From: a bacterium | GTDB taxonomy: Bacteria > SAR324 > NAC60-12 | Assembly (NCBI GenBank): GCA_965233585.1 | Contig: CBDDTI010000747.1 | Location: 544,001 to 608,000 of the forward strand | Length of the DNA stretch: 64,000 bases | Direction: 5' to 3' | Part shown: piece by piece, positions 3,502 to 48,796 of the stretch | Position numbering within the stretch: the first letter of the stretch is position 1 | Layout of the letters: the number at the start of each line of letters is the position of its first letter | Translations under genes and position numbers: made by a program | The notes under the pieces: model-generated | The model's database searches: none | The model's input: the letters and a program-made list of their open reading frames with translations, nothing else | Told to the model about the DNA's origin: nothing

Positions 3502-5682
3502 ATGCCACAGACTGTTCTGGTTCTTGAAGAAAGCCAAATTGTTCAAAATCTCATTGCACAAACGTTGAAACGTCATGATTTGGAGACTCATCAAGAACTT
3601 AATCCCCAAAAATTCTCTGATGCTCTTGCAGTTGGAGACCAAGTCCTTGTTCTCATAGACCTCAAACATTATTCTAAAATACAAACGTTATTAAGCTCAA
3701 GTATGCCTGCTGTGGCATTGCTAGATGCCAAGTCTCAAGTGGACAAACAAACGCTTCTTGACATGGGTTTTAAAGGGTGGCTTCGCCGTCCATTTGAGGC
3801 AAAAGACTTGATGAGCCAGATTCGTCTTGCATTGCCCGACCTCCATGCTCATTCGTCTGAAACTCTTTATGAAGAAGCATGCGAAACGCAAGATGTTGCA
3901 GGCGATGAGAAAAGCCTCATTCACAACCTCTTCTATGACCATTCGGAGACATCGCAGAAAGAGTTTGAAACCTTGAATCTTGAAGAAGTGCCAGATTTTG
4001 AAGATGACACGCTTTGTTTGGATAGCGAAGCATTAGAAGATGAACCTCAACTGGATTTTAGGGTGCCAGAATCCAACGAAGTATCGGAAGGTTTAGAGTT
4101 AGATGAGACATTCTCTGACAATTTTGGGACAGATGAAGGTCAAGATATTTTCAATGAAGAGGAGGAAGGTTTGGAGTTAGATGAGACATTCTCTGACAAT
4201 TTTGGAACAGATGAAAGTCAAGATGCTTTCAGTGAAAAAGAAGAAGGTTTGGAGTTAGATGAGACATTCTCTGACAATTTTGGAACAGATGAAAGTCAAG
4301 ATGCTTTCAGTGAAAAAGAAGAAGGTTTGGAATTGGACGAGATGCTTTCTGGCAATTTTGGGGCTGGGGACGAAGAAGACTTACCACAGTTTGATGCCTC
4401 CTCAAGTGAGACGTCACAATTTGAAAATGACATTCAGAGTTCAGTCATTGACGACTCAAATTCTGATTTAAATACCGATACCGATACAGAAGGTGACTTG
4501 TCAGATTTATTTGCAGAGAAAGAACACGGAATGCCTGATGCGATTCGCAAACACAGAGAAATGTCATTTGCTGGTAGCTCTTTGTTTCAAGCACATATTC
4601 CAGAAAAACAAAAGTTAAATCACGGTCTCACAGACATTAAATTGGGGCTGAATGACTTTGAATCAGAAATCAGCATTGATGATTACGACCCAGAACAAGT
4701 GCAATATCTCCGTAGAAGTGTCATGGATATTGTCCTCAATGCCAATGATTTTGACCCAGAAGTCCCTGATATTCCAGAAGAACAAAGTGAGTCTAGCATA
4801 CTAGAAATGGACTCTATGCTTTTGGAACTTGATGAAGATGAAAAATATGCAAACAGGGAATCCCAAAAAGAATCTTTGGAACAGCAAGTCGCAGATTTTG
4901 ATGATTTTGCAAGCCCCCCTGAACCAATGGAAGTTGGAGTTTTTGCCGAAGCAGAACCTTTTGGGTCTTTGAGCGATGAAGTGGAAATCAATATGCAACC
5001 TCAGGCGATGGCAAATTTTTCTCAAGAAGATGACATCAAACATTTGGAAAAGCAGATGCTAGACATGGAGCAAGGTAGCGACGTCCCAACCATAGACTTT
5101 GAAGAAGATGAAGAGTTTGACTTTGGAACAAGCCAACTAGATATTTCAGTGTCTGAAGAAAAGTCTGATGAAGAAGTCAATTTTGATGGCATCAATCCAG
5201 CTGAAACAGAGTCTTTGTCAATGTCTGCTGATGAATTGACTGATGACTTTTTTGAAGGTTCACAACAACTTGAACCTGAAAGTGAAGACGTAACAGACCC
5301 CAGTTTTGGGGTAGATTTTGAAATGCCGAGCAGTTTTGATGAGCAACCAGAGGATTCTGATGAAGTCAGTGGCACTGATGTCAATTTTGGTCAAGGTAGT
5401 GATGCCTTTGCCACAATGAACAGTTTTGATGAACAACCAGAGGCTGATGATGATGAGCTGTCTGTTGGTCTCCATCAAGAAGAAAGTCCCAGATTAGAGC
5501 TTGAGTCCCAAGATTTTCAAAATCCAGAAGCCAATCAATTCATTTTCCAGCCCAATACAAAAGGTTCGTTGGAAACAGCCTTGCAAAGTATGATCTCAAA
5601 CTCTGTGCAACAAGCCTTAAAAGATATGACTCCGCAACTTGTTGAACAAATTGCCAATCAGCTTAACTCACAAAAGGATTAG
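3502..5682 (+). CDS. Degenerate receiver domain + long acidic disordered linker + short C-terminal helical domain (RomR/PopZ-like polar scaffold)
   Basis: VLVLEES...WLRRPF pseudo-receiver; D/E-rich linker of over 500 aa; C-terminal VQQALKDMTPQLVEQI. Confidence 0.6.
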   Translation: MPQTVLVLEESQIVQNLIAQTLKRHDLETHQELNPQKFSDALAVGDQVLVLIDLKHYSKIQTLLSSSMPAVALLDAKSQVDKQTLLDMGFKGWLRRPFEAKDLMSQIRLALPDLHAHSSETLYEEACETQDVAGDEKSLIHNLFYDHSETSQKEFETLNLEEVPDFEDDTLCLDSEALEDEPQLDFRVPESNEVSEGLELDETFSDNFGTDEGQDIFNEEEEGLELDETFSDNFGTDESQDAFSEKEEGLELDETFSDNFGTDESQDAFSEKEEGLELDEMLSGNFGAGDEEDLPQFDASSSETSQFENDIQSSVIDDSNSDLNTDTDTEGDLSDLFAEKEHGMPDAIRKHREMSFAGSSLFQAHIPEKQKLNHGLTDIKLGLNDFESEISIDDYDPEQVQYLRRSVMDIVLNANDFDPEVPDIPEEQSESSILEMDSMLLELDEDEKYANRESQKESLEQQVADFDDFASPPEPMEVGVFAEAEPFGSLSDEVEINMQPQAMANFSQEDDIKHLEKQMLDMEQGSDVPTIDFEEDEEFDFGTSQLDISVSEEKSDEEVNFDGINPAETESLSMSADELTDDFFEGSQQLEPESEDVTDPSFGVDFEMPSSFDEQPEDSDEVSGTDVNFGQGSDAFATMNSFDEQPEADDDELSVGLHQEESPRLELESQDFQNPEANQFIFQPNTKGSLETALQSMISNSVQQALKDMTPQLVEQIANQLNSQKD
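4087..4362 (+). repeat. 78-bp (26-aa) intragenic tandem repeat, about 3.5 copies (EGLELDETFSDNFGTDESQDAFSEKE)
   Basis: Unit starts GAAGGT at 4087, 4165, 4243 and 4321. Confidence 0.9.
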
Positions 5683-7912: not shown

Positions 7913-7986
7913 GGCGATGTGGCCGAGCGGTTAGGCAGAGGTCTGCAAAACCTTCTACACCGGTTCAAATCCGGTCGTCGCCTCCA
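7913..7986 (+). tRNA. tRNA-Cys (GCA)
   Basis: GGCGATG...CGTCGCC acceptor stem, anticodon loop CTGCAAA, GGTTCAAATCC T-arm, encoded CCA. Confidence 0.96.
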
Positions 7987-8001
7987 CACTTCAACTTTTC
8001 T

Positions 8002-8085
8002 GCCCGGGTGGCGAAATTGGTAGACGCACAGGACTTAAAATCCTGTGTCCGCAAGGGCGTGCCGGTTCGATTCCGGCCCCGGGTA
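8002..8085 (+). tRNA. tRNA-Leu (TAA), CCA not encoded
   Basis: GCCCGGG...CCCGGGT acceptor stem, CAGGA-CTTAAAA-TCCTG anticodon arm, long variable arm, GGTTCGATTCC. Confidence 0.95.
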
Positions 8086-8176
8086 GTTTCAGCCAAGATT
8101 CCCCAACAAAAAATAGTGGACACAGGCAGGATTGAGCAGAATCATAGTTGAAGTAGCACAGCATAAGTGCATCAGG

Positions 8177-9820
8177 TTATTCATCACCAATGATGGAAGC
8201 CTCAGGCTCTAATTGCTCAATTTCCTCCTTTAGCTTATCGGCTTGGGCTTGTAGCTCGGCAATTTGTTGCTCTAGGGCTTGTTGTTGCTCTGCAGCAATT
8301 TGTTGCAGTATGTCGGGGTCTTTCTCATACAGTTTCAATAGCTCATAGTCGCTGCTTTCATGCAGAGTTTGCAAGGCTTCAATCAGCTCCAGCAGGCGTA
8401 TTTGCAAGCTCTGATACATCTGCTCTAGGGCATGCAGGTTGGATTCCTCGCCAAGCTCTATGGTTTGCCAGCCCTGCTGTTGAATAAACTGTTCGGGGTT
8501 GGCGGCTATCTCCTCTAACAGGGCCAAGTCGCCTTCATCTCTGGCATGGTTAATCACCGCCATGAGCTTTTGGTAGGTCTCCATTTTTTCGGGGTCATTG
8601 TGGTGGCGGTCGGGGTGAAACAGGCGGATGAGCTTGTTCCACAAGGGTTTGATAGCTTTTTTTTGTTCATCAGTTAAGTTCTTTTTGCCACTGGCAGCTT
8701 GCTCGGCTTGCTCTTGCTCTTGTTCGGCTTGCTCTTGCTCTTGTTGAAATGGCTCGTTGAGAGACTCTGCCTCCTCCATACCCTGCTGCATTAAAACATC
8801 TAGGTATTGACTGCGGTAATAAACTATCTGCTGGAGCTTGTTGCGTTTGTGGTGGTAGTGGCTGACCTGTAAAAACAGCTTGGCTTTGAGGGCATCTACG
8901 GCGTTTTTGTCGGTAGTGTATTGTGCCTCTAGCTCAGCTAAACGGTTGCGCAGATTGTTGATAAGGGCTTCTAGCTCTTGTTTTCGTTGCGTGCCATACA
9001 CGGTTAAACTGGTGACATTGCTTGGGCTGGATGTGGGGGTAGATGAGGGATCAAGGGCAATGAATTCTGCCAGTGCCTCCAGTTGTGTCAAATACCATTT
9101 GCCCATCGCTTGGCTACGTTCGTTGTTTGATGAGGCTAACCACTCCAGCCAATCTTTTAGTGCTTGATGACTGCGTGCCTCGCGAAAATCACAGCCCTTA
9201 TATTTTCCAAACGCCAAACGACTGGGATACCAAGGTTGCTGGCAAAAATCCACCACCGCCTGCCAAGTGTTTAGCTCTCGTTGGTCGGCTAGGGGTTGCA
9301 ACACTTGCTGCAGCAGGTCAATCACCGTTTGCACATCGTCTAAGGCAGTGTTTGTACCTCGCTCAGATAGGCGGTAAAACTGCCTTAAAGTTTGTAATTT
9401 GCAGTTGCCTGCGGCGACTGGGTCTAACAAACGTCTAGTGAGTTCCAAGGCACAAAAGCCGCGTCTGCCAATGGGTGCAATACCTAACCGTTGCCATTCG
9501 GGGGTGAGTACTTGGTTTAGGTCGTAGTTTAGGTTGTAGGTTACCAGCGGTGCATCAGCTACATACTGCCTCAATGCCTCGTGTACTTCGCTGGGTGGGT
9601 TGCCATCTCGTTCTAAAATCTCCCTTGTGTAACCGTTTGTGCGAGAGGCTTCGGGCGGTATAGCGGCATCGTGGTTTAATAATTGCCTAAACGGTTCTCC
9701 CACTGCTTGCCAGCCACACATAGTTTGGGCAGCGATCTCTAGGGCAAAAACGGGTCGCTTAAAGCCGGTGGTTTCGGTATCTAATAAGACCCATTTGGTG
9801 TTGTTTATCGGGGGAGTCAT
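8177..9820 (-). CDS. Fusion of DEDD 3'-5' exonuclease (DnaQ-like) + FGKYKG helical module + coiled coil + J-domain (HPD) + C-terminal coiled coil
   Basis: LLDTETTG (ExoI), YNLNYD (ExoII), NTALDD (ExoIII), LAFGKYKG, WNKLIRLFHPDRH...MAVINHA J-domain. Confidence 0.85.
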   Translation of the reverse strand: MTPPINNTKWVLLDTETTGFKRPVFALEIAAQTMCGWQAVGEPFRQLLNHDAAIPPEASRTNGYTREILERDGNPPSEVHEALRQYVADAPLVTYNLNYDLNQVLTPEWQRLGIAPIGRRGFCALELTRRLLDPVAAGNCKLQTLRQFYRLSERGTNTALDDVQTVIDLLQQVLQPLADQRELNTWQAVVDFCQQPWYPSRLAFGKYKGCDFREARSHQALKDWLEWLASSNNERSQAMGKWYLTQLEALAEFIALDPSSTPTSSPSNVTSLTVYGTQRKQELEALINNLRNRLAELEAQYTTDKNAVDALKAKLFLQVSHYHHKRNKLQQIVYYRSQYLDVLMQQGMEEAESLNEPFQQEQEQAEQEQEQAEQAASGKKNLTDEQKKAIKPLWNKLIRLFHPDRHHNDPEKMETYQKLMAVINHARDEGDLALLEEIAANPEQFIQQQGWQTIELGEESNLHALEQMYQSLQIRLLELIEALQTLHESSDYELLKLYEKDPDILQQIAAEQQQALEQQIAELQAQADKLKEEIEQLEPEASIIGDE

Positions 9821-11145
9821 CGGATCACCTCTACCTCATCATCGCAACCCAGCCATTTTAAGTTAGGGTTTTGGGAGACATCTAGTGCCGTGAGTTGGTT
9901 GTACTCGCACCACAGCCGTTCTAAGTTAGGGTTTTGGGAGACATCTAGTGCCGTGAGTTGGTTGTCCTCGCACCACAGCTCTTGTAAGTTAGGGTTTTGG
10001 GAGACATCTAGTGCCGTGAGTTGGTTCCTTCTGCAATCCAGCCGTTCTAAGTTAGGGTTTTGGGAGACATCTAGTGCCGTGAGTTGGTTCCTTCTGCAAT
10101 CCAGCCGTTCTAAGTTAGGGTTTTGGGAGACATCTAGTGCCGTGAGTTGGTTGCTTATGCAATCCAGCCGTTCTAAGTTAGGGTTTTGGGAGACATCTAG
10201 TGCCGTGAGTTGGTTGCTTCTGCACCGCAGACATTCTAAGTTAGGGTTTTGGGAGACATCTAGTGCCGTGAGTTGGTTGTACTCGCACCACAGCCGTTCT
10301 AAGTTAGGGTTTTGGGAGACATCTAGTGCCGTGAGTTGGTTGTCCTCGCACCACAGCCGTTCTAAGTTAGGGTTTTGGGAGACATCTAGTGCCGTGAGTT
10401 GGTTCCTTCTGCACCACAGCTCTTGTAAGTTAGGGTTTTGGGAGACATCTAGTGCCGTGAGTTGGTTGTCCTCGCACCACAGCCGTTCTAAGTTAGGGTT
10501 TTGGGAGACATCTAGTGCCGTGAGTTGGTTCCTTCTGCAATCCAGCCGTTCTAAGTTAGGGTTTTGGGAGACATCTAGTGCCGTGAGTTGGTTGCTTCTG
10601 CAATCCAGCCGTTCTAAGTTAGGGTTTTGGGAGACATCTAGTGCCGTGAGTTGGTTGTCCTCGCACCACAGCCGTTCTAAGTTAGGGTTTTGGGAGACAT
10701 CTAGTGCCGTGAGTTGGTTGTCCTCGCAATCCAGCCGTTCTAAGTTAGGGTTTTGGGAGACATCTAGTGCCGTGAGTTGGTTGCTTCTGCAATCCAGCCG
10801 TTCTAAGTTAGGGTTTTGGGAGACATCTAGTGCCGTGAGTTGGTTGGGGGTTTTGGAACCCGCTTCATTGCCACATTTGAGAATTTGCAGATTGGGATAG
10901 CGGCTCACATCCAGTTCGGTCAGCCCTTGGTCGCTGACATCCAGCTCCGTCACGCTGTAGTCCAAATGCTCGGCGACTTGGCTACTTTTTTGAACTAAGG
11001 CACGGGCGCGTGCTAGGGCATCGTTGGCGACCTCGTCTATATGCCGTTGAGCTGCCGGGCTGAGGCTTGGTTGGCTGCTTTGGCGAACAACAGGCAGTTG
11101 TTGGTCTGCTTTGTGGGTATGATCGCTGTTTTCATCACTGTTCAT
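9817..11145 (-). CDS. Cytoplasmic leucine-rich repeat protein (21-aa LxxLxCxxNxL repeats, IRREKO-like class)
   Basis: 16 NQLTALDVSQNPNL frameworks; no signal peptide; SD AGGAG upstream; stop overlaps the next ATG (ATGA). Confidence 0.93.
   Translation of the reverse strand: MNSDENSDHTHKADQQLPVVRQSSQPSLSPAAQRHIDEVANDALARARALVQKSSQVAEHLDYSVTELDVSDQGLTELDVSRYPNLQILKCGNEAGSKTPNQLTALDVSQNPNLERLDCRSNQLTALDVSQNPNLERLDCEDNQLTALDVSQNPNLERLWCEDNQLTALDVSQNPNLERLDCRSNQLTALDVSQNPNLERLDCRRNQLTALDVSQNPNLERLWCEDNQLTALDVSQNPNLQELWCRRNQLTALDVSQNPNLERLWCEDNQLTALDVSQNPNLERLWCEYNQLTALDVSQNPNLECLRCRSNQLTALDVSQNPNLERLDCISNQLTALDVSQNPNLERLDCRRNQLTALDVSQNPNLERLDCRRNQLTALDVSQNPNLQELWCEDNQLTALDVSQNPNLERLWCEYNQLTALDVSQNPNLKWLGCDDEVEVIR
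9859..10845. repeat. 63-bp tandem array: 16 identical 42-bp blocks separated by 15 variable 21-bp segments
   Basis: Constant TAAGTTAGGGTTTTGGGAGACATCTAGTGCCGTGAGTTGGTT at 9859+63n (n=0..15). Confidence 0.97.
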
Positions 11146-11223
11146 AGTTTAGCTCCTGTTAGGTTGATGTGAGTCGGTCTGTTGGTGATAGAGTCAATTC
11201 AGAAAGGTTTTGTTAGGGAATAC

Positions 11224-12726: not shown

Positions 12727-13983
12727 CTAAGATTTTTTTGCTGGAGAAGTTGATTTTTTTTCTTCTGCCAGTTCTTTCATTTTTGCTTCTTTTTCCTTCT
12801 TTTTTTGGTGCAGCTTGATAGATTCCTCTCTTGCTCCTTTCAAGGCTAATTTATATTTTTCTGCTTGTGCAGAAGTTCCTGCCACCTTATGCAATTCAAT
12901 GGCAAGCTCCATGAGCTGAACTTTACCTGATGCCGCATCAATTTTTTGGATATTTCCCCGACCCAATGCTTTGATTCCATCTTCAACATACTTCAAGGCT
13001 TGTTTGTGTTGGTCAAGAGACATGCTGTTTTGAGCCATAGAATAATAGGCTTTGTAGGCTTTGGAAAATCGCTTGTTATTTGCTGCTTCTTGGTAATAGT
13101 GATTACTGATTTGAATCATACTTGATAACATTTTGTTGATAGAAATGGGATTTTTACCAGATGGCAGGACAATTTTACTTTTGGGAAAATCTTGGTTGAA
13201 ACGAGTGATGAATGATCGGAGCTTACCCATGTCTTTCACTTGCTGTTTTTGGGATTTTCCACTGACCACTGCCAGATAAAAATCAATGATGTCTTGAAAC
13301 ACCTTGGCTTTATAAATCTGGATTTCTCCACTCTTGAGTAAAAACATGGCACGGCTTTGCACTAGCATGATTTGTTCATACTCGTTCAAATGATAAAAGG
13401 CTTCATAGTGACGTCTGCCCTGCATGTAAAATTTGATGATTCTCTCACGTGATTCTAAGGCAACAAGGTCTTTGTTAACCAGCATCTCAGACATGAGAGA
13501 ATGCACTTTTTTTTCAACATGATACGGAGTGTTGTTAATCGGTGTTAGAACCTTGAAGGTGCTAACCATCAAAGAACATCCTGGTGGATAGACTTTGCGT
13601 GTTGCAGTTTGAACACTGGTTGAGGCAACATCAATGGCAGTGTAAAGCAAAAAAAGTTGCCTTGATACATTGGAGACCTCTTTTGAAGCGGCATCAATGA
13701 TCCATCTTGCAAGAACTTCTATGAATTTTTCACCATCTTTTTGCTGACGGTAAAAAGAGGCACAAATCTGAATGCCTTGTGCCAACAAATTCATATCTGT
13801 TGTGCTGTCAGCAAGCATCTGGGTCACTTGAGAGATGGGAACTTTGACTTTAGAGCTAAAAAGACGGTGCTGTCTTTTTTCCTCTGCTTCCATGATAGAG
13901 CTGGTTAATTTTTTGGTAGAAGCATCAAAATTAAACTCAAAGCATTGAAGTTCTTGATTTTGCGAGGAAGAATCTGCCGACAT
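12727..13983 (-). CDS. Hypothetical helical/TPR-like protein
   Basis: 418-aa ORF, TPR-like AYYSMA...ALKYVEDGI segment, Lys/Glu-rich tail. Confidence 0.55.
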   Translation of the reverse strand: MSADSSSQNQELQCFEFNFDASTKKLTSSIMEAEEKRQHRLFSSKVKVPISQVTQMLADSTTDMNLLAQGIQICASFYRQQKDGEKFIEVLARWIIDAASKEVSNVSRQLFLLYTAIDVASTSVQTATRKVYPPGCSLMVSTFKVLTPINNTPYHVEKKVHSLMSEMLVNKDLVALESRERIIKFYMQGRRHYEAFYHLNEYEQIMLVQSRAMFLLKSGEIQIYKAKVFQDIIDFYLAVVSGKSQKQQVKDMGKLRSFITRFNQDFPKSKIVLPSGKNPISINKMLSSMIQISNHYYQEAANNKRFSKAYKAYYSMAQNSMSLDQHKQALKYVEDGIKALGRGNIQKIDAASGKVQLMELAIELHKVAGTSAQAEKYKLALKGAREESIKLHQKKKEKEAKMKELAEEKKSTSPAKKS

Positions 13984-17612: not shown

Positions 17613-18179
17613 TTACAAAACCCCTAAAATCAAAACTGGAATATCAATGTCTGAAACACCTCTTTTTTCTAAATCCCAGACAAATTGTTCAAAATAAGAA
17701 ACTCCTGATGACATTTCATCGGCTAGTTCTTTAATCGGAACAATTTCTATGCCTGCATCAATAATGTTCAGCTTCTTAAAGATAGTCATCTTTGCACAGA
17801 CGTTATAAACCATAAACGCATACTTTCCAAATTGCACTTCAACTCCTAGTCTTTCTTTCACAAAATCCATATCTCTAAATGCACCTTGTTTTAAAGGTTT
17901 AGGTTGATAATTTTTTGTGTAATATTGTGTTGGGTAGTTACATTTTTCTTTATGATTGTGCCAATTTCTAGCTGAAAAATATTTTTTAAATTCTTGATTT
18001 AACATAGCAGGACTGTACAGTAGTTTGCCCTGCATTGTTTTCTCTTGACTTATTTTATCTTTGCACTTCTCAGAATCTACACATTGAACGACTTCATAAG
18101 TTTGACTCAACAATTCTGCAAAGTGATTTTGAATAAACTCCTTACCACCATTAAAGCTAAATTCTCCAGCAACAATCAT
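17613..18179 (-). CDS. Type II restriction endonuclease, BglII/BstYI family
   Basis: DMDFVKERLGVEVQFGKY (D...E-x-Q catalytic motif), IDIPVLILG; ATG at 18179 overlaps the MTase stop. Confidence 0.85.
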   Translation of the reverse strand: MIVAGEFSFNGGKEFIQNHFAELLSQTYEVVQCVDSEKCKDKISQEKTMQGKLLYSPAMLNQEFKKYFSARNWHNHKEKCNYPTQYYTKNYQPKPLKQGAFRDMDFVKERLGVEVQFGKYAFMVYNVCAKMTIFKKLNIIDAGIEIVPIKELADEMSSGVSYFEQFVWDLEKRGVSDIDIPVLILGVL

Positions 18180-19084
18180 AAGCTCCACTGCAATGGAAAT
18201 TGTGCGACTTTTTCGGTACCACTTGGCTGATGGATGGGTTTCCCGATTGGTCTTATTCTCAGGTTTCCCGAAAGAAATTGCTCAACTCTTTGCTTGGCAA
18301 TAGAGCAATACCTCTCTTCTTTTTCAACGCAAACAGGTAACCGATGATGCTTCAAACAAGCAATAGCAGTACTTCCTACCCCACCAAAGGGGTCTAGAAC
18401 CATATCATGTTTGTTGGTAAAAGCTAGGATGCAACGTTCCACTAACTCTATTGGGAATTGACAAGGGTGTTCTGTTTTTTCAGGGTGATTAGACTTGACG
18501 TTGGGAATATCAATCATACCTAAATCAAACTCTGTTTGAAGTAGCTCCCAATAATCTGATGGGTTTTTACCCTTTGGGTTTCCGCTTAATTCTCCTTTTC
18601 TTTTGCCTTTAAAATGTCGTTTCCCGGGATATTTTGAGGGAATACGGACTTCATCTAAATTGAAGATATAATTCTCATTTTTAGAAAACCAAAGCAAAGT
18701 TTCATAGCGTCCAGAAAGTCTTTTTTGTGCATGTAACCCATGGTTAAAGTGCCAAATGATACGGTTTCTTAACTGTAAACCTAGCTTTTTAAAAATGGGG
18801 TAAAAATACATATCCAGAGGAAAGATTTCCCCTTTTTCAACATAATTTCCCACTTGCCAACAAAAACTTCCTGTTGGCTTCAGTTTGGGAACAAGTTGAG
18901 AGATAATTGATTCTTGCCAAGCTAAATAATTTGCTAAAGACGTTTTTTCTTCGTAGTTTTTACCGACATTATAAGGAGGAGAAGTGATAATCAGCTGAAA
19001 TTGACCATCAGCAAAATCTTTGATTTTTTCTTCTATTTCTCCTTGAAAAATAGATTGGCTTTCATCAAAAAAACAACTCTGCAT
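18176..19084 (-). CDS. Site-specific DNA methyltransferase, beta class (N4-C/N6-A)
   Basis: ITSPPYN (motif IV) precedes HPCQFP and VLDPFGGVGST (motif I). Confidence 0.92.
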   Translation of the reverse strand: MQSCFFDESQSIFQGEIEEKIKDFADGQFQLIITSPPYNVGKNYEEKTSLANYLAWQESIISQLVPKLKPTGSFCWQVGNYVEKGEIFPLDMYFYPIFKKLGLQLRNRIIWHFNHGLHAQKRLSGRYETLLWFSKNENYIFNLDEVRIPSKYPGKRHFKGKRKGELSGNPKGKNPSDYWELLQTEFDLGMIDIPNVKSNHPEKTEHPCQFPIELVERCILAFTNKHDMVLDPFGGVGSTAIACLKHHRLPVCVEKEERYCSIAKQRVEQFLSGNLRIRPIGKPIHQPSGTEKVAQFPLQWSL

Positions 19085-19092
19085 TGTCAAAA

Positions 19093-20949
19093 TCAAGAAA
19101 GAAGTGTTAGTAATTCATGGTTTAGCAAAGAAAGCCCGTGTTGAGTTAGGACTGACTCAACGTGAAATTGCATAGTGCAGAAGTGTTGACCACGCAAGCC
19201 ATAAACTTCAAAAGACGTTTCATCGTAACAAATCTTTACTTTTTGAACAGCAGAAGAATGCTTCACAACAAAAGTGCAATAAAATCCAACTTTTTGAGAA
19301 GTTCCAAACCAGTTTACTTCTTTTTGAATGCCTTGCAAAGGAACATCTTTGCATGCTATGTCAAAACCTAAGAGAATGCTGGTAATTTGATGCCCTAAAC
19401 AGACTCCTAAAAATACTTTTTGACGTTCCAAAAGCGTTTTTGCAATGTCTTGAAGTGCCATGATTTTGGGAGATTTCAGGTCATTTGGATTTCCTGGACC
19501 TGGACCAAGGACTGTCAAGTCCGAATCATCTTTTTCTATGTTGTAATCTTTCCATGATACGACTTTGGTTTTGAATCCTAAATGTTTCAAAAGATGCTTT
19601 AGCATGAGGCAAAAATCATCTTCATTGTGAATCAATACCACCTGCTTATCTTGAAATTGAGCGGTGACGTCTTGTTCAGATTGATTGTCAAGCCAGAATG
19701 GAGACAAAAAGCGGTTTCTTTGTTCTAAAATTGCTTGTAAAGAAAATTGAGTTTGAAGAGTTGGCAACAAATTAGGTGGGGGTTGAGCAGGAGGGTTGAT
19801 GATATTTTCAAGCAATCCTGCCATTTTTGCTTCTGTTTCAAGTGTTTCTTCTGTGGGAATAGAGTCCCTCACCAACGTTGCACCAACACGGAAGCCACAC
19901 GTGCCGTTGCTGTCTATTTCTACAGTTCTAATCAAAATGGGGCTGTCAGCAGTTTCCCCTTGCTGGTCTCTTCCAAGCAAAAGCAAAGCGCTGGAATAGT
20001 ATCGTCTTGAATCAGTTTCATATTTGCGAATGATGCGGCAAGCATTTTCAACAGGACTACCTGTCACGGTGGCGGCATACATAGAATCACGCACCATTTG
20101 AATTAAATCTCTGTTGCCTGTGCCTTCTAAAACATATTCTGTGTGAATCAATTTGGACATTTCTTTGAGAAACGGACCTTGAATGCGTCCGCCATGATTA
20201 CAGATGTTTGCCATCATTTTAAGCTCTTCATCAAGCACCATAAACAATTCATTAATCTCTTTGGGATTTTCTAAAAATTTTAAAAAATCATCTTGAAATG
20301 TTTCAGGGGAAAAAGACTTGCCAACCTTCCTAAAGGTTCCGCTGATGGGGTTCATTTTGGCAAGAGACCCTTGCACTGTCAGATGCCTTTCAGGCGTTGC
20401 TCCAATGAAAAAACTTGAGCCATCAAAAAAGATAAAAACCCAGTATGCTCCTTGTTCATTCTGCAACAAATTACGATAGATGCTTAAGGCTTTGTTCAGA
20501 GAAAACTCTTGGATTTGTGCTGTGCCGTCCCGCATGATGACAAAGTTTGCTCCTTCTCCCCTGCCAATCTCATGCTCAATAATTTGCTGAACTAATCTAT
20601 TGTAATCCTGTTGAGAGGTTTTATAATTCATTCCATCTTGGAAGGCTATTTTTTCTTTTGGAAGAGATTGCAAGGCTTCCTGTTTATTCCACCAAGTTTG
20701 ATTTTCAACATGGAGAGTGAGAATGGGCAAATCATCTTCTTTTACCACAAAGTTTCTTTCGCGAATTTGTGAAAAAGGCAAAAGACTCAATGTGTCAAAA
20801 GTAGAGGTGCCAGTTGCTTGGGAATGTCTTGGAATATCTTGTAGTTTTTGAAATGATGAAATGAAGCCTTCTAAGGCAATAATGTCTTTTTCATCATGCC
20901 TTTTAATCAAGGCAAAAGGTTTTTCAAAAGTCATCGGTCTATGTGCCAT
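19093..20949 (-). CDS. PhzE-like / fused TrpE(G) anthranilate or ADIC synthase
   Basis: Chorismate-binding domain (GEGANFV, MNPISGT, ELFMVLDEELKMM, TVTGSP) fused to GATase (GPGPGNP, GVCLGHQ, QFHVES). Confidence 0.85.
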   Translation of the reverse strand: MAHRPMTFEKPFALIKRHDEKDIIALEGFISSFQKLQDIPRHSQATGTSTFDTLSLLPFSQIRERNFVVKEDDLPILTLHVENQTWWNKQEALQSLPKEKIAFQDGMNYKTSQQDYNRLVQQIIEHEIGRGEGANFVIMRDGTAQIQEFSLNKALSIYRNLLQNEQGAYWVFIFFDGSSFFIGATPERHLTVQGSLAKMNPISGTFRKVGKSFSPETFQDDFLKFLENPKEINELFMVLDEELKMMANICNHGGRIQGPFLKEMSKLIHTEYVLEGTGNRDLIQMVRDSMYAATVTGSPVENACRIIRKYETDSRRYYSSALLLLGRDQQGETADSPILIRTVEIDSNGTCGFRVGATLVRDSIPTEETLETEAKMAGLLENIINPPAQPPPNLLPTLQTQFSLQAILEQRNRFLSPFWLDNQSEQDVTAQFQDKQVVLIHNEDDFCLMLKHLLKHLGFKTKVVSWKDYNIEKDDSDLTVLGPGPGNPNDLKSPKIMALQDIAKTLLERQKVFLGVCLGHQITSILLGFDIACKDVPLQGIQKEVNWFGTSQKVGFYCTFVVKHSSAVQKVKICYDETSFEVYGLRGQHFCTMQFHVESVLTQHGLSLLNHELLTLLS

Positions 20950-25267: not shown

Positions 25268-27241
25268 ATGAAGCACTTTAAAAGTTCTTTAAGTCATTTT
25301 TTCGTTGGTTTGTTATGGTCAGGGACAGCAGTTTTACACTATTGGAGCATCAATGGCAAACTGCATCACATTCTTAGCTTTTTTAAAGAAGCCCTTCCAA
25401 TCATTGTTGTTGGTGCGGTGCTTTATTGGCTTCTTTCGTTCTTCATTCTTTGCAAAGCGACCAAGAATCCACAACGTTGGTTGTCAGTGCAACTTGGCTT
25501 TTCTATCTTCTTTCTATTTATTGGACCTCATCGGCAATTAAACCATACGATACATGGTTTACTCTTCCTCACCTACGTCAGCATACTTGGATTTTTAGTC
25601 ATTTGGTTATGCTGGAGGTTTCACCAAAAAGTCAAGCCTCTTATCTTCATTTTCCTGCTTGCCTTTGGTGCATCAAGAGCATATGAATCGTTGGTCTTTT
25701 TAAATGAACAGTATCAGGACTATCAAGCCTTAAAAGCATCATTTTCAAGAGAAAGTGCCAAAGAGTTTCTTGACAAATTTAAGCAACATGATGACTTCCA
25801 ACACAAATTCAACATCTACCAGCTTTCTACTGACTCTTATCCCAGTTTAGTAGGAATCAAACGTTTTGGTATAGACAATTCTGACTTTTATCAATGGCTT
25901 GACGAAAAAGGATTTAGAACTTATCCAAATGCCGCATCAAATAGTGCTGATACATTTCGAACTTTGAACATGATGTGGAGAATGGAACTCTCATTTCCTG
26001 AACATTTAGAAAACCTCACTTACGAATCTTATTTTGGTAAAAATGAGGTCTTTGCAAGATTGATCAATCAGAACTATGCCATTTATTGTGATTATCCTTG
26101 TACAGCCCATGAAAGATCGCCCAAACCACCAATTTTTGCAAACTTAAAACCAGCATCAGGAACTAACACCACCTATTCTTTTTTCACAGGTTACTTTTTT
26201 GGATATTACTTTTCAAATGAGTTGGTTGAGTGGCTTGCAGGTCCAAGAGATGCTATGCCAAATGAAACGGGGGCATACGTTGACTCTTATCTTAACGCCC
26301 AAGCAGATTTTCAGCTTCTAAAGCAAGCTGGATTGGTGGAAAACACGTATATTTTTCTTCATAACATCACAGAATTTCCCAGACTGCAAAGTATAGCAGA
26401 GAGTATTAATTCGGGATTAAAAACCATCATTGAAGACATTTTAAAAAAAGATCCTGGGAGTATGATTATTGTGAGTAGCGATCATGGGAATCGTCCGGAA
26501 TGGACGGTGCCGTATGGTGATATTCCGCTACATAACTTTGGTGTCATTCAAGCCATCTATTGGCCCCAAGTTTGTAGGCGATTTCGTGATGTAGAAGTCC
26601 TCACAGGTGTTAATTTCTTTCGTTATATTTTTGCCTGTTTGAACGGCTGGAAAAAACCCAAACATTTGGAGCCTAACGATGGGCATATGGTCTACGTTTC
26701 AAAAAACGCTGACTTTCAGAAATATAATGGGATTTTTCTTGGGGTTAAAAATGGCAAATTTCTTGACTACCCCAAAGAAATTAATGGAAAGTTTAGTCAG
26801 CAAGAAATTATAGAACTTCTCACAGATTCATCGCAGCACAATATCTTTACTAAAAAACTATATTCTGTAGAAGGAGAATCTGCCATTAATTCAACAGGTC
26901 TTCGGCATTTATGCGATGGAGGAAAAAGTTTATGCATCATGGCTCCTTCAGAAGTCATTTATCCCCTTGAAGGTGATGAGTCTCATTTGAGTTTTAGTTA
27001 TGGAATTGAAGAAAACGCTCTATCAAATCAACACGAAGGAATCTATTTTCAAATCTTTTTAAAAAGTAGCAACAAAGAGGAGAAGATATGGGAAAGTTTT
27101 ATTGAACCTCAACAGCGATATGTCAAAAATGCGAGTATTGAGATTCCAATGAATACCTTTCAAGAAATAAGGTTCAAAAATAGCTGTCCCAAGCAATGTG
27201 TTGAGGCTTGGGGACTTTGGGGAGACTTCAAGATTCGCTGA
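25268..27241 (+). CDS. Membrane-anchored sulfatase/phosphoglycerol-transferase-like protein
   Basis: About 5 N-terminal TM helices; NIYQLSTDSY and IIVSSDHG alkaline-phosphatase-superfamily motifs. Confidence 0.6.
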   Translation: MKHFKSSLSHFFVGLLWSGTAVLHYWSINGKLHHILSFFKEALPIIVVGAVLYWLLSFFILCKATKNPQRWLSVQLGFSIFFLFIGPHRQLNHTIHGLLFLTYVSILGFLVIWLCWRFHQKVKPLIFIFLLAFGASRAYESLVFLNEQYQDYQALKASFSRESAKEFLDKFKQHDDFQHKFNIYQLSTDSYPSLVGIKRFGIDNSDFYQWLDEKGFRTYPNAASNSADTFRTLNMMWRMELSFPEHLENLTYESYFGKNEVFARLINQNYAIYCDYPCTAHERSPKPPIFANLKPASGTNTTYSFFTGYFFGYYFSNELVEWLAGPRDAMPNETGAYVDSYLNAQADFQLLKQAGLVENTYIFLHNITEFPRLQSIAESINSGLKTIIEDILKKDPGSMIIVSSDHGNRPEWTVPYGDIPLHNFGVIQAIYWPQVCRRFRDVEVLTGVNFFRYIFACLNGWKKPKHLEPNDGHMVYVSKNADFQKYNGIFLGVKNGKFLDYPKEINGKFSQQEIIELLTDSSQHNIFTKKLYSVEGESAINSTGLRHLCDGGKSLCIMAPSEVIYPLEGDESHLSFSYGIEENALSNQHEGIYFQIFLKSSNKEEKIWESFIEPQQRYVKNASIEIPMNTFQEIRFKNSCPKQCVEAWGLWGDFKIR

Positions 27242-27689: not shown

Positions 27690-30350
27690 ATGGATGACAT
27701 GTTAAAAAAGCGGATGCTCATCAATGCAGAATATGATGAGACACGCATTGCAATAGTAGAAAATCAAAGACTAGAAAATTTTTACTTTGAAAAAATAGAG
27801 CAACACAGAAGGCGCGATAACATTTATTGTGCGGTTGTTGAAACGATTGAACCCTCTTTGCAAGCGGTGTTCATTAATTATGGTGGAAGAAGGCATGGCT
27901 TTTTGGCAATAGATGATGTCAATTTTGCTGCGCTTGGCATTGTGCAAGAGCCTCAAACAACTCTTAAAATTCAGGATATTCTCAAGATTGGGCAAAAAGT
28001 TTTAGTGCAAGGTCTGCGAGATGAAATTGGCAACAAATGTGCCTCTTTTTCAATGAATTTAAAGTTGCGTGGACGGTTCATGATTTTTTTGCCACACCAG
28101 AGGAACGGGATTGTCTCCAAAAAAATTACTGACCCCCAAGAACATCAACGTCTGAAGATTTTTATTGAGGGTTTAAAAAACTCTCATCAAGATTCCTCCG
28201 CTATCATTCGTTCCGTTTCAGAGGGGCGGAGTCTGTCTGACTTGAAAAAAGATTTTATTGCTTTGCAAGGTCAGTATCAAACCATCTGCCAGCAATTTTC
28301 CAAAGCAAGGGGTGGTTCTTTGCTTCAGCAGGAAGCAAGCACTGCGATACGCATCTTGCGTGAAGATTTTTCAGAAACTATGACAGAAGTTTGTGTTGAC
28401 CACCCTGAAACTTTTCAAGACGTCCAATATTTCTTCAAACAACACCTTCCTAAATACCAAAAGAACGTCAAACTTTATCTGGGGAATCGTTCTATTTTCA
28501 CAGAGTATGGAATTGAAAGGCAGGTTGAAGCCTTACAGTCTAGTCAGGTAGCGTTGCCCTCGGGTGGTGGAATTGTGATAGACCAGACGGAGGCGCTGGT
28601 TGCGATTGATGTCAATTCAGGCTCTGCACGACAAGGAGACTCTGTTGAAGAAACCGCCATTCGTACTAATCTTGAGGCAGTAGAAGAGATTGCCAAGCAG
28701 TTGCGGTTGCGAAATTTGGGCGGTTTGGTGGTCGTGGACTTCATTGATATGCGTTCTCCTGCCAATCGTAAAGAAGTTGTTGAGGCAATGCGGCTTGCAA
28801 CAAAAAGAGACCGCGCTCAGTTTAAACTTGGTGGAATTTCTAAGTTTGGCTTGTTTGAGATGAGTCGTCAACGCATGGACAGTAGTGTCATGCAAAATGT
28901 CCAAAACAGATGTCCAGCCTGTCGTGGTACAGGACTACAACCCACGTCTGAAACCAATGCAAATGATGTGTTGCGAAAAATCAGAGAAATTGCAGCACTA
29001 GAGCAGGTTATAAAAATTAAGGTCTTTGTTGACCATACTTTAGCAAGCCATTTGTTTAACTATAAACGTTCACATCTTGAAGAAATTGAATTGGCAAGCG
29101 GGGTGCAAGTCCTTTGGGAAATCAAGACACCTGATCTTTTGAATGGACAGACCATTTTTGAGTTTTTGCGTGCAGGGCAAAGCAGATACAAACAATTCGT
29201 TTTCCGAGATAAGCCTTTGCCCGCCCTTCCTAAAACTACTACACCTGAACATGACCCCGTTGAAAAAAAATTACCGGAGCCACCAGTCCCTAAAATACCT
29301 CACTTAAAGATCGTTTCAGAACAGACAGAAATTCCAAGTAAAAAGGAGGTTCCTACCCAAGAACAAACGTTGCAAATTCTTCCCTTCCCCCAAGAAAAGC
29401 AAGAGAAAGCAACGCCTCCAAAGACTGAAGAACGCATTCAAGTCATCTCTCAAGAAAAGACAGAATCAGCTCCGAACGAGGTCAAATCTGGCAAACTTTT
29501 TTCAAGTGTCCATCGTCCCTATCCTGAAGATGCAGTTCCCCTTCCTAAAATTCCTGAAAAGCAAAACCAGTGGCAGGACGTTCCTATCTTTACAACCATT
29601 TATCGCAGCGAACATCAAGAAGAAAACACTACCCAAGCACCTTTGATTGAAGCGATTGAAGATGAAGAGGCTCTGGCTAAACCTAAAAAGAAGGCAGTCA
29701 AAGCACCAACTAGAACAAAGAAGAAAGCAGATGCTTCCCCTGAAACAACAGAAGTCAATGCTGATGTGGTTCAACATAAGCAAACACCCGTTGAAGCCAA
29801 ACTTGATGAGTCTGTTCAAGCACCTTTGATTGAAGCGATTGAAGATGAAGAGGCTCTGGCTAAACCTAAAAAGAAGGCAGTCAAAGCACCAACTAGAACA
29901 AAGAAGAAAGCAGATGCTTCCCCTGAAACAACAGAAGTCAATGCTGATGTGGTTCAACATAAGCAAACACCCGTTGAAGCCAAACTTGATGAGTCTGTTC
30001 AAGCACCTTTGATTGAAGCGATTGAAGATGAAGAGGCTCTGGCTAAACCTAAAAAGAAGGCAGTCAAAGCACCAACTAGAACAAAGAAGAAAGCAGATGC
30101 TTCCCCTGAAACGACAGCAGTCAACGTTGATAGCAGTGCCTTAGCTGAACAAGCAACTGCTGAAACCAAACTTGATGAGTCTGTTCAAGCACCTTTGATT
30201 GAAGCGATTGAAGATGAAGAGGCTCTGGCTAAACCTAAAAAGAAAAAAACAACTACTGTTAAAAAAGAGGACAAACCTAAGAAGAAAGCAACCAGTAGAA
30301 AGAAAAAAACGGCATCTGATGACTCTGTTGCTGATGAAAAAAACTCATGA
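27690..30350 (+). CDS. rne: Ribonuclease E/G family with repeat-expanded C-terminal tail
   Basis: S1 domain (LQAVFINYG), TEALVAIDVNSG, LRLRNLGGLVVVDFIDM, CPACRGTG. Confidence 0.92.
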   Translation: MDDMLKKRMLINAEYDETRIAIVENQRLENFYFEKIEQHRRRDNIYCAVVETIEPSLQAVFINYGGRRHGFLAIDDVNFAALGIVQEPQTTLKIQDILKIGQKVLVQGLRDEIGNKCASFSMNLKLRGRFMIFLPHQRNGIVSKKITDPQEHQRLKIFIEGLKNSHQDSSAIIRSVSEGRSLSDLKKDFIALQGQYQTICQQFSKARGGSLLQQEASTAIRILREDFSETMTEVCVDHPETFQDVQYFFKQHLPKYQKNVKLYLGNRSIFTEYGIERQVEALQSSQVALPSGGGIVIDQTEALVAIDVNSGSARQGDSVEETAIRTNLEAVEEIAKQLRLRNLGGLVVVDFIDMRSPANRKEVVEAMRLATKRDRAQFKLGGISKFGLFEMSRQRMDSSVMQNVQNRCPACRGTGLQPTSETNANDVLRKIREIAALEQVIKIKVFVDHTLASHLFNYKRSHLEEIELASGVQVLWEIKTPDLLNGQTIFEFLRAGQSRYKQFVFRDKPLPALPKTTTPEHDPVEKKLPEPPVPKIPHLKIVSEQTEIPSKKEVPTQEQTLQILPFPQEKQEKATPPKTEERIQVISQEKTESAPNEVKSGKLFSSVHRPYPEDAVPLPKIPEKQNQWQDVPIFTTIYRSEHQEENTTQAPLIEAIEDEEALAKPKKKAVKAPTRTKKKADASPETTEVNADVVQHKQTPVEAKLDESVQAPLIEAIEDEEALAKPKKKAVKAPTRTKKKADASPETTEVNADVVQHKQTPVEAKLDESVQAPLIEAIEDEEALAKPKKKAVKAPTRTKKKADASPETTAVNVDSSALAEQATAETKLDESVQAPLIEAIEDEEALAKPKKKKTTTVKKEDKPKKKATSRKKKTASDDSVADEKNS
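29634..30243 (+). repeat. 183-bp (61-aa) intragenic tandem repeat, about 3.3 copies
   Basis: CAAGCACCTTTGATTGAAGCG starts at 29634, 29817, 30000 and 30186; first two units identical. Confidence 0.93.
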
Positions 30351-38315: not shown

Positions 38316-39793
38316 TTTTTGTGCGTCTTTTGCTCGCTTCCTTTTTTCAAAAACCTTTCTTTCTCGTCTCTTCTTCTATTGTTCTACTTGGTTTGTCCCT
38401 TGAAGTTTCATGGATTGCATGGACTGCATGGACTCCTTTTTTTTATGGATTAAACCGACATTCAACAGCCAAAATTGTGCAAATGGCTTTTTTCATTTTG
38501 TGCAGTTGGCATGTCATCGCTTTCATCTGGCTGTTAGACATCACACATTGGGGATATTTAGTTGGTCTGGCGATGGTGCTTTCTATCATACCAGCTTTGA
38601 CATGGGTTTTTGCCAAATTCCTGTTACCAAGAAGCTATGCACTCATTGGTCTGTTATGGGTTTTGCAAGAGCAAATTTTGGAGGAATTGCCATTTGGAGG
38701 TGTGCCGTGGATGGTGCTTTCTGCATCACAACCTTTGGGGACGTGGCAAAGTGCAGTCGTTCAAATAGGTGGAAGTAGTCTGCTTTCTGCCATCTTGATT
38801 GCTTATTCTGCATGGCTTGCTAGTACTTTGCATCAGCGAGGCAAGCCAATGAGTCTTTGCCTCATCTTTGGAGGAATGGCATTGGGATTAGCCAATTTTC
38901 ATTTTGTCCCATCGTCAAATGACAAGCAGAAACCTTTGAAAGTCGCAGTTGTGACGGGAGATGTGTCATTGGAAGACCTTGCCAATGTCAAACGTTATCC
39001 AGCTATTTTAGAAAATTACCAAGCACGAGCATCAAAGTTGTTGGAAAAGGAACGTAGCGATTTGCTGATTTTTCCAGAAACAGCATGGGCAGGAGTTTTG
39101 GAAAAAGGTGAGACGTTGTTGAAACTTTTAGACTTCGCCAAAGAACATTCTTTAGATTTATTGCTGGGGTCAAATTCCCATCGCCTGATGCCTCCTGATT
39201 GGAAGTGGTTTAATTCTGCCTATTTGTTAAGAAGCGATGCCATGTCTTTTCAGCGATATGACAAAAGACAGCTCGTTCCATTTGGGGAATACACACCTGC
39301 ATTTTTAAAAAAACTGGGCATGAAGCAAGCCATTCCAATCCATGAATACCATGAAGGCAGAACAAAAACAGTGTTACATACCAGTTCTGCAAACATAGGA
39401 GTCTTGATTTGTTTTGAGTCGTTATTTACCAAACTTCGCCCTCATTTTGAGCAAAACCAAGTGGATATGTTTGTCGTCATTTCCAATTTACAATGGCTTT
39501 CTCAAGCAGGGGCAAATCGCTATTTGTTACTGACAAGACTCAAAGCGGCAGAAACTAGAAAGCCTTGGCTTGTTGTTGCCAATGGCAGTGTCTCTGCTTC
39601 TTTTTTTCCTAGTTTGTGGGGAATGAATGAAAGAAAAATCAAAGGGGAACAAGTGCTGACAGTTTATCAAAGTCAGCACGTCACGCCCTATGGACGTTAC
39701 GGACTCTTGCTGACCCTTGCAATTTTAGGAGGTTGTGTATTTGTTGAATTCTTTGCGAGAAGAAATGATTTTGTCCAACAAACCAAAGTCTAG
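38303..39793 (+). CDS. lnt: Apolipoprotein N-acyltransferase
   Basis: GGVPW, FPET, YDKRQLVPFGEY, LICFES catalytic E-K-C; 3' end overlaps convergent clpP by 69 bp. Confidence 0.88.
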   Translation: MDVLIFVRLLLASFFQKPFFLVSSSIVLLGLSLEVSWIAWTAWTPFFYGLNRHSTAKIVQMAFFILCSWHVIAFIWLLDITHWGYLVGLAMVLSIIPALTWVFAKFLLPRSYALIGLLWVLQEQILEELPFGGVPWMVLSASQPLGTWQSAVVQIGGSSLLSAILIAYSAWLASTLHQRGKPMSLCLIFGGMALGLANFHFVPSSNDKQKPLKVAVVTGDVSLEDLANVKRYPAILENYQARASKLLEKERSDLLIFPETAWAGVLEKGETLLKLLDFAKEHSLDLLLGSNSHRLMPPDWKWFNSAYLLRSDAMSFQRYDKRQLVPFGEYTPAFLKKLGMKQAIPIHEYHEGRTKTVLHTSSANIGVLICFESLFTKLRPHFEQNQVDMFVVISNLQWLSQAGANRYLLLTRLKAAETRKPWLVVANGSVSASFFPSLWGMNERKIKGEQVLTVYQSQHVTPYGRYGLLLTLAILGGCVFVEFFARRNDFVQQTKV

Positions 39794-40303
39794 TGCTTCT
39801 TTGGCAGTGAACCAGTTGTCTCTGTCTAGTGCTTCTTTGATTTCTTCATACGATTTGCCTGTGTGCTGACAATAAATTTCAATTGTTAAGTCTCGTGTTT
39901 TTAGAATTTCTTGGGCTTGAATCTCGCAGTCTGTCGCCCTTCCTTGATAGCCTGTCAACAAAGGTTGATGAATCATAATTTTTGCATGTGGCATGGCAAA
40001 TCGTTGTCCTTTGTCTGCAGAAAGACTTAACAATGACCCCATACTTGCCGCAAAGCCGCTCACTACTGTTGTCACAGGGCAGCTGATAAAGCGAAGCATA
40101 TCAAAAATAGCAAATCCTGAAAACATTTCGCCCCCTGGAGAATTGATCAACACTGTGATTCGTTTGTCAGATGCCAGTTGCTCAAGCAAGACAAGTTGTT
40201 CCAATATCTTTGATGCCAATTTTGAGTCCACTTGATTTGAAATAATCACAGTCCGCGATTCAAGAAGTTGTTCCTCAAGTGAGAAGTTTTTTTGATTTGC
40301 CAT
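39725..40303 (-). CDS. clpP: ATP-dependent Clp protease proteolytic subunit
   Basis: INSPGG, AASMGS, MIHQP, DRDNWFTAKEALDFGLLD. Confidence 0.95.
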   Translation of the reverse strand: MANQKNFSLEEQLLESRTVIISNQVDSKLASKILEQLVLLEQLASDKRITVLINSPGGEMFSGFAIFDMLRFISCPVTTVVSGFAASMGSLLSLSADKGQRFAMPHAKIMIHQPLLTGYQGRATDCEIQAQEILKTRDLTIEIYCQHTGKSYEEIKEALDRDNWFTAKEALDFGLLDKIISSRKEFNKYTTS

Positions 40304-41482: not shown

Positions 41483-41570
41483 AATTTATTTATAAGAATA
41501 TTTTACACATTTTTTAAAATTTCTACTTTTAATTAGTAATATCAAAAATTTAATCACACTATTACATTTT

Positions 41571-41819
41571 TTAGTTTTCTGATGGACTAGATAGTGGTAA
41601 AAGAGTTCTAATAGATTCTCCTAGAACTGGAACTCCTAAACACAATGAGACCATACTAGATAGTCTCCCTATTATATTCCAAAATTTTTCATTAATATCA
41701 TTACCTTTCTTTACTGTATCCCTAAATGATTTATTTGTAATGACATAACCATAAATCTTATCTATAGATTCTGTAATAGGAACAACACCAGAAATAAAAT
41801 ATTCTTCAATATTAATCAC
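41571..41819 (-). CDS. Small AT-rich hypothetical ORF or gene remnant downstream of the R-M gene
   Basis: 82-aa ORF (GTG start) in a very AT-rich stretch; no motif recognised. Confidence 0.3.
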   Translation of the reverse strand: MINIEEYFISGVVPITESIDKIYGYVITNKSFRDTVKKGNDINEKFWNIIGRLSSMVSLCLGVPVLGESIRTLLPLSSPSEN

Positions 41820-41884
41820 TATTTTTTGAATGAATTTAAACTTGTGATAACAATATAAAAAATCAAGTAAGTTTTATAAAAATT

Positions 41885-45724: not shown

Positions 45725-45885
45725 TTTGACTAATGTTAAGGTAGGTTAAAAGTTTTTCTCATCACTTCACAAAATCAAAGTGTCGTTTGATTGGATTGAT
45801 TTTTAAATGATTCCACAAACGAGATGTATTATATTCTGCATTCAACTGACAATCAAAATTTGAACACTTCTAATTTTGAGCAAAA

Positions 45886-48662: not shown

Positions 48663-48717
48663 AACCCCTTGTAAAGCATAGATTGTTCCAAAATAGATTT
48701 TTTCTAGCAAATCCCTC

Positions 48718-48772: not shown

Positions 48773-48796
48773 TTATCTGGAGAGATTTTGTCAGAC

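Follow-up and report, generated by a model that had tools for sequence, protein, structure and literature searches.

A leucine-rich repeat gene with identical framework blocks

The window analysed here, 64,000 nt of contig CBDDTI010000747.1 (positions 544,001 to 608,000; assembly GCA_965233585.1) from a bacterium of the SAR324 lineage, carries a gene for a leucine-rich repeat (LRR) protein in which sixteen tandem units share one framework down to the last nucleotide. The gene lies on the minus strand (9817..11145, stop codon included), starts with ATG and encodes 442 amino acids; it was recognised from the open reading frame (ORF) list, from Pfam, from a match in the Protein Data Bank (PDB) and from an AlphaFold model. 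Reading the upstream sequence directly, we found an AGGAG ribosome-binding motif 7 nt 5′ of the ATG (11153..11157, minus strand). A scan for promoters and terminators gave signals at chance level only.

Residues 1–59 (10969..11145, minus strand, as are all parts of the gene) appear in the AlphaFold model as a polar disordered stretch (residues 1–25, with predicted local distance difference test (pLDDT) values below 50) followed by a helix at residues 30–52. In the parsed translation, degenerate N-cap LRR units occupy residues 60–100 (10846..10968; VTELDVSDQG and LTELDVSRYPNLQILKCGNEAGSKTP), and the array, 16 units of 63 bp, encodes residues 101–436 (9838..10845). The protein ends in a short tail, EVEVIR, whose codons together with the stop take up 9817..9837. 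It has no Sec-type hydrophobic N-terminus, and its C-terminus has no LPXTG motif.

Each array unit consists of an invariant 42-bp framework (NQLTALDVSQNPNL) and a 21-bp cassette of the form xxLxCxx, in an exact 21-codon register. The preliminary description of this DNA had reported all framework blocks to be identical at the nucleotide level, and this was borne out: 16 copies of the 42-mer, all without a mismatch, follow one another every 63 bp, the first at 10804–10845 and the last at 9859–9900 (span 9859..10845), always on the minus strand inside the ORF, and dinucleotide shuffles give 0 copies. For 9844–10846, Tandem Repeats Finder gives 15.9 copies of a 63-bp period. We also recovered exactly the nine types described for the 15 intervening seven-codon segments, with the same counts (ERLWCED and ERLDCRR three times each, ERLDCRS and ERLWCEY twice each, and ERLDCED, QELWCRR, QELWCED, ECLRCRS and ERLDCIS once each). 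A sixteenth cassette, KWLGCDD (9838..9858), lies beyond the last framework and is a C-cap variant.

The repeat also keeps open a 336-aa shadow ORF on the plus strand (9890..10900), which we do not count as a gene. The LRR matches from Pfam are all in the minus-strand frame, and the shadow ORF is likely to give rise to mis-annotation.

The 13 nucleotide positions that vary all lie within the last 21 nt of the unit, in codons 15, 16, 18, 20 and 21. The other 16 codons are invariant in all 16 units, with zero substitutions at some 187 synonymous sites in total; Leu CTG (codon 17) and Cys TGC (codon 19) within the cassette are fixed in 16/16 units, as had been described. One N-cap unit (LTELDVSRYPNLQILKC) is like the array unit at 11 of 17 residues and encodes 10 of those 11 by other codons, which shows that the gene tolerates synonymous change. 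Codon constraint therefore does not account for the identity of the frameworks; recent common ancestry or ongoing homogenisation does.

Cassette classes differ from one another by 5–12 nt per 21 nt. The two main ones, D-R(S/R/I) and W-E(D/Y), are written GAT…AGA/ATA and TGG…GAG, respectively, and stand 8–9 nt apart within 12 nt. Within these classes there are single-step variants (RS/RR, RS/IS and ED/EY), all three of them non-synonymous. In units 1–15 each residue is always encoded by the same codon, so the earlier statement that every difference is non-synonymous is correct for those units; unit 16 departs from it by adding one synonymous pair at codon 21 (Asp GAC/GAT).

The same description had the sub-modules assorting freely across the Cys codon. 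All four combinations of codon 18 (D or W) with codon 20 (AGA/ATA or GAG) do occur, and all four are also present for codons 15–16 with codon 20. The split for codons 18 and 20 is 6:1:1:6, however (Fisher p = 0.029), a pattern of linked modules with rare recombinants and not one of free assortment. The two rare types, D-ED and W-RR, are set apart from the majority types by blocks of 3–5 nt, which makes past exchange inside the 21-bp cassette much likelier than recurrent point mutation.

The variable sites involve all four bases and are not adenine-specific. A similarity between units at lag 6 (p = 0.049, uncorrected for the six lags) was not taken as real. Silent donor copies, which the preliminary description had suggested looking for, were not found in the 64-kb window: outside the array it contains no copy of the 42-mer with at most 3 mismatches and none of any 21-bp cassette with at most 4. 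The LRR gene is complete, unlike an incomplete gene flanked by silent donor cassettes.

Fold, variable surface and relatives

The protein matches Pfam LRR_4 (E 6.7e-67), and its closest PDB sequence match is the LRR domain of Listeria monocytogenes InlJ (3bz5; E 4e-58, over residues 108–414). An AlphaFold model built from a 44-sequence alignment scores pLDDT 91.3 and a predicted template modelling score (pTM) of 0.85, and Foldseek again ranks 3bz5 first for it (template modelling scores 0.71/0.70). The protein is thus a 21-residue "cysteine-ladder" solenoid of the InlJ class, with turns of the form LxxLxCxxNxLTxLDVSxNPx and the Cys present in 16/16 units; InlJ likewise has LRRs of 21 residues in which Cys takes the sixth place of LxxLxCxxN. 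It is not an internalin: the best NCBIfam model, internalin_J, gives 268 bits where the cutoff is 1700, the protein begins with a polar, disordered stretch, and there is no anchor motif. InlJ differs further in that its repeats are diverse, and its signal peptide, internalin cap, inter-repeat region and LPXTG anchor cannot be read in the LRR protein. The specific Pfam matches of the latter are LRR families, with no NTPase domain (NOD, NACHT or NB-ARC) among them, in agreement with NCBIfam; the remaining weak Pfam matches resemble repeat artefacts.

The varied residues are x2, x3, x5, x7 and x8 of LxxLxCxxN. A beta-strand runs through unit positions 16–18 (x3-L-x5) in every unit of the AlphaFold model, and this places x2, x3 and x5 in or beside the concave sheet; x7 and x8 we take, from general knowledge of LRR proteins, to sit on its rim. 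The earlier assignment of the varied residues to the x positions that face the binding side agrees with this, for x2, x3 and x5 by the model strand and for x7 and x8 by that general knowledge. Across 120 homologues, conservation is lowest in these same five columns.

In 185,579 species-representative genomes, a set that does not include the source genome, no array with this framework was present. The scan, made with the degenerate pattern NQLTxLDVSQNPNL, yielded single matches at 18 loci, 17 of them from Bacteroidota and one from a Clostridia metagenome-assembled genome; among these 18 loci, once fetched, were 5 arrays of the same class, whose frameworks are on average 59–82% identical and never identical. 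The plasmid collection gave no DNA match to the LRR gene, its best protein-level match being a Listeria lmo0331-family internalin at 53% identity. In the open-access literature searched we met no account of a bacterial LRR array with nucleotide-identical frameworks, which does not prove that none exists.

At the protein level the array is extreme within its family. Of 269 proteins examined, a set chosen by similarity to a repetitive query and therefore biased toward consensus-like arrays, 208 have five or more in-register units, and among these the mean pairwise unit identity of the array, 0.86 over 16 units and 336 aa, is the highest; the next values are 0.79–0.82, in several relatives whose frameworks are nearly invariant, and the median is 0.59. 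The internally conserved relatives include the Bacteroidota proteins P0027, P0031, P0045 and P0079. A whole-protein search of 5.8 billion proteins gave 6989 LRR matches; none of the 120 listed is an orthologue, the best identity among them being 62%, and the few listed matches that carry source names are Bacteroidota proteins of the type IX secretion system (T9SS) type or Firmicutes InlB-B-repeat proteins.

The N-terminal part has few relatives. Residues 1–100 had no match in a word-indexed search of the 5.8 billion proteins. Against 1.84 billion representatives they gave 411 matches, whose alignments, for almost all of the 150 listed, cover only the cap LRR units (about residues 60–96). Only one listed match begins as early as residue 19: P0256, a 125-aa fragment, with 42% identity over 73 aa (residues 19–91). 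The closest N-terminal relatives, P0256 and P0361 (55 aa), are both short fragments that end inside an LRR array, which would fit contigs that break at such repeats.

Five proteins without signal peptides (P0254, P0270, P0273, P0333 and P0350) form a loose sub-family. They share a helix near the N-terminus, "ILSxMVxDALxxAR", and a domain without annotation or Pfam match, "RIGDYEF…PDYRQIL.WA", and P0254, itself a match of residues 1–100, has a C-terminal cap similar to the one described here ("…CDDE…"; …CDDELVLKNLHK). Their units, NxLTELDLSxVPxLTxLxCxx, are internally conserved and vary mainly at the x positions, so the pattern is recurrent at the protein level.

The downstream gene and its surroundings

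The LRR gene is the upstream member of a pair. Its stop codon overlaps, as ATGA (9817–9820), the start of a gene for a 547-aa protein (8177..9820, minus strand) in which Pfam and NCBIfam recognise a DEDDh (RNase_T) exonuclease fused to a J-domain. Residues D14, E16, H402, P403 and D404 of this protein are invariant in 37 sequences, 402–404 being the HPD motif. It belongs to what is apparently a large, uncharacterised family, with 1168 homologues at E ≤ 0.001; 119 are listed besides the self-match, 47–55% identical and mostly of about 545 aa, and the few listed homologues with source names are all from Proteobacteria.

The two genes make up a GC-rich island (8100..11223), delimited by composition, that adjoins two plus-strand tRNA genes (7913..8086), tRNA-Cys(GCA) at 7913–7986 and tRNA-Leu(TAA) at 8001–8086, which are the only Rfam matches. 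The GC content of the island is about 0.49–0.50, as against about 0.39–0.44 in its flanks and about 40% in the genome. At third codon positions (GC3) the LRR gene reaches 0.55–0.56 and the downstream gene 0.53; the flanks have 0.37–0.41. From the GC3 difference and the position next to the tRNA genes we conclude that the island is foreign and that the LRR gene arrived by horizontal transfer together with the exonuclease/J gene. Direct repeats of the tRNA 3′ end were not found at the island boundaries, nor was an integrase found.

The rest of the window holds a gene set of Gram-negative type, with LptG, Lnt, NuoM, MltD, an FlhB/YscU-family protein, CdaA-YbbR and hrcA-grpE-dnaK-dnaJ. The cdaA-ybbR genes (a c-di-AMP synthase pair) are divergent from hrcA-grpE-dnaK-dnaJ (46892–53589), and there are large orphan ORFs at 837–1862, 3502–5682, 12727–13983 and 25268–27241; this arrangement and these ORFs suggest a poorly studied lineage. 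Atlas matches did not settle that lineage, the FlhB-like protein falling with clusters of mixed phyla and DnaK with clusters mostly from Pseudomonadota; PDB matches of ClpP and aspartokinase were uninformative on it, and no result supports an environmental chlamydia. The FlhB/YscU-family export-apparatus gene stands alone (40409–41482, minus strand) beside clpP (39725–40303), and the window has no other flagellar or injectisome genes near it. Two further tandem repeats occur: one of 78 bp (3.5 copies, 91% match, 4087–4361) in the orphan 726-aa ORF at 3502–5682, which has no Pfam or NCBIfam match, and one of 183 bp (3.3 copies, 95% match, 29634–30244) in the stretch of the RNase E gene (27690–30350) that encodes the C-terminal part. 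Restriction-modification is represented by a BglII-like endonuclease and methylase pair (17613–19096) and by a Type IIG restriction-methyltransferase of 1279 aa that carries fused specificity domains (41885–45724, minus strand). The latter lies in a low-GC stretch (41001–46000, GC 0.31–0.35) that is probably another acquired segment.

Origin of the array

We think it rather probable that the array is a product of concerted evolution, in which the tandem LRR repeats of a horizontally acquired gene have been homogenised with diversity kept on the binding face, and that it did not arise by programmed assembly of the kind known from variable lymphocyte receptors (VLRs). Units would be added, deleted, reordered and homogenised as the identical 42-bp frameworks undergo slippage, unequal exchange and short-tract gene conversion with one another. 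The five codons x2, x3, x5, x7 and x8 of each unit would escape homogenisation and carry binding specificity: clustered mismatches in the cassettes would limit the extension of heteroduplex, and selection or a lack of constraint would keep the cassettes diverse. The outcome would be a modular binding surface made from about 10 cassette types and changeable on a population time scale. The protein would be a soluble solenoid, and our best guess at its role is that of a protein-binding adaptor or effector.

[quoted passage not shown] Unequal crossing-over has been proposed for their concerted evolution, again as stated in the available parts of the sources (PMC12222747, PMC4986451, PMC2873952). 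HIC repeats have at least 85% identity over at least 100 aa, and the array has 0.86 over 336 aa; its variation is likewise confined to few codons on the ligand-binding surface, namely five, with x7 and x8 counted there by general LRR knowledge. The scaffold and the setting differ. According to PMC4986451, LRRs are not found in fungal NLRs. The fungal HIC proteins have a non-LRR scaffold and combine it with a NOD/STAND NTPase and an effector domain, whereas the present gene is bacterial and its product has neither domain.

The arrays of transcription activator-like effectors (TALEs) and RipTALs offer a second parallel, in that their tandem repeats are near-identical and the specificity residues differ by multi-nucleotide codon changes; concerted evolution has been proposed or shown for TALE-like repeats as well (PMC4987410). 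TALE units differ from those described here in being helical, 33–35 residues long and variable at a repeat-variable diresidue (positions 12 and 13) that reads one DNA base each, as against a 21-residue LRR with five variable residues. A code of one unit to one monomer is a feature of TALEs and is not shown for the LRR array.

Among bacteria, the LGR LRR genes of Protochlamydia amoebophila are, according to PMC2216083, more GC-rich than their genome and carry arrays grown by concatenation or recombination of adjacent units in a common frame. The present gene is also bacterial and also more GC-rich than its genome. LGR units, by the same account, have 28 residues of the ribonuclease inhibitor-like type and are non-identical, neighbours being the most similar, in large genes with a shared N-terminal part (PMC2216083). 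The window array has instead 21-residue units, identical frameworks, no neighbour effect and a protein of 442 aa.

Lamprey VLRs share with this protein the LRR solenoid and the diversity of the concave face, and VLR chains appear among its weak PDB matches (E 1e-6 to 4e-4). Somatic assembly of VLRs draws on flanking donor cassettes and depends on a deaminase. Neither component was found here, donors having been sought in the 64-kb window and the enzyme among its ORFs of at least 150 aa. The pattern fits ordinary concerted evolution with diversity retained at binding positions, as known from TALE repeats and fungal HIC NLR repeats, here on an LRR scaffold, and does not resemble lamprey VLR assembly.

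A stronger version, which we regard as unlikely, would make the gene a member of a new bacterial family of signal-less LRR proteins with a conserved N-terminal helix or domain, DNA-identical 21-residue frameworks and interchangeable five-residue cassettes on the concave face, actively reshuffled at sub-unit resolution by intragenic recombination. Such a family would correspond, among bacterial LRR proteins, to the TALE code and to the fungal HIC immune receptors, and its members could be rapidly re-targetable effectors, or sensors coupled to the exonuclease/J protein.

Several points weigh against concerted evolution with diversity kept on the binding face. All evidence from the array comes from a single sequence of the locus. 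The LRR protein itself is missing from the 5.8-billion-protein collection, though the product of its neighbour is present (P0121); gene callers may have overlooked the LRR gene or chosen the shadow ORF instead. Its internally conserved relatives were compared as proteins, and the near-invariance of their frameworks is a protein-level result. Adjacent units are no more similar than distant ones (lag-1 permutation p = 0.33), and hence there is no simple signature of recent adjacent duplication. Over the five variable codons pN is 0.417 and pS 0.285 (Nei-Gojobori path averaging), with pS arising solely from path averaging across multi-hit codons; the formal dN/dS of only about 1.5 over five codons is by itself weak.

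The order of the units could be a product of assembly inference, and we think it improbable that the array is partly such a product, with real unit types in a number or order wrongly inferred by the assembler. Exact 42-bp repeats separated by recurring cassettes (types present three, three, two and two times) make short-read paths through the array ambiguous; short-read assemblies of such arrays are shown to be unreliable in PMC12222747, and the 55- and 125-aa relatives end inside theirs. The locus lies, however, on a contig of 1,073,512 bp, which is more typical of long-read assemblies, short-read assemblers usually breaking at such arrays, and the reading frame is intact over 1008 bp with both caps in place.

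About as improbable is an array free of adaptive diversification. Relaxed constraint together with mismatch-limited conversion could give the same pattern without positive selection: the five positions would be unconstrained, clustered mismatches would block heteroduplex extension so that only the frameworks become homogenised, and old neutral differences would persist. The low formal dN/dS and the family-wide variability of the same five columns are in line with this, and CTG and TGC, the codons between the variable ones, offer too few synonymous sites for testing. Against it, no residue has two codons among units 1–15, and each of the three single-step variants changes the amino acid; independent relatives also combine internal conservation with surface sites that are hypervariable, and in fungal NLRs this pattern has been tied to positive selection (PMC4986451).

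We are more doubtful still of a two-gene sensor–effector module, anti-phage or stress-linked for example, in which the LRR protein senses a ligand and controls the exonuclease/J protein. The stop/start overlap and the foreign composition common to both genes would suit it, as would weak matches of the exonuclease to the PADLOC DEDDh model (62.6 bits) and the candidate system PDC-S48 (37.8 bits) and the restriction-modification genes elsewhere in the window. The LRR protein has no meaningful PADLOC match, however (21.7 bits), Pfam shows no NTPase or signalling domain in the module, and the exonuclease/J protein belongs to a family of 1168 matches, the listed ones of about 545 aa.

The bacterial VLR-like receptor of the preliminary description, taken as a programmed system whose array is re-patterned frequently and actively within the lineage, with donor cassettes or a dedicated enzyme at work, is very unlikely: identical frameworks with about 10 cassettes do look like a library, and exchange points within the 21-bp segment with all four gametes present would suit it, but the window lacks donor copies, its scanned ORFs of at least 150 aa include no reverse transcriptase, no recombinase or transposase and no deaminase, linkage between the modules is strong, and none of the species-representative genomes has the framework array. 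The hallmarks of a diversity-generating retroelement were likewise not seen, with no reverse transcriptase in those ORFs, no second repeat copy in the window and changes that are not adenine-specific. Of the preliminary reading, the binding face and past recombination hold up. Nothing points to programmed change or to the continual re-patterning that had been proposed, through gene conversion or unequal crossover; what the cassettes record is past exchange.

Concerted evolution of the tandem repeats thus remains the reading that we prefer, and its meaning depends on whether the array varies. Genes of this type break or mislead short-read assemblies and may drop out of protein catalogues, as this LRR protein did. 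Should the array prove invariant, it would be no more than a tandem amplification of unusually young age within an LRR gene gained by horizontal transfer. If it varies among strains or cells, the principle of an invariant scaffold with recombining, hypervariable binding residues, known from TALEs and from fungal and plant immune receptors, would extend to bacterial LRR proteins, and the gene would provide a consensus-like LRR scaffold of natural origin, with 21-residue turns that each have five defined variable positions, like those that protein engineers have built by hand.

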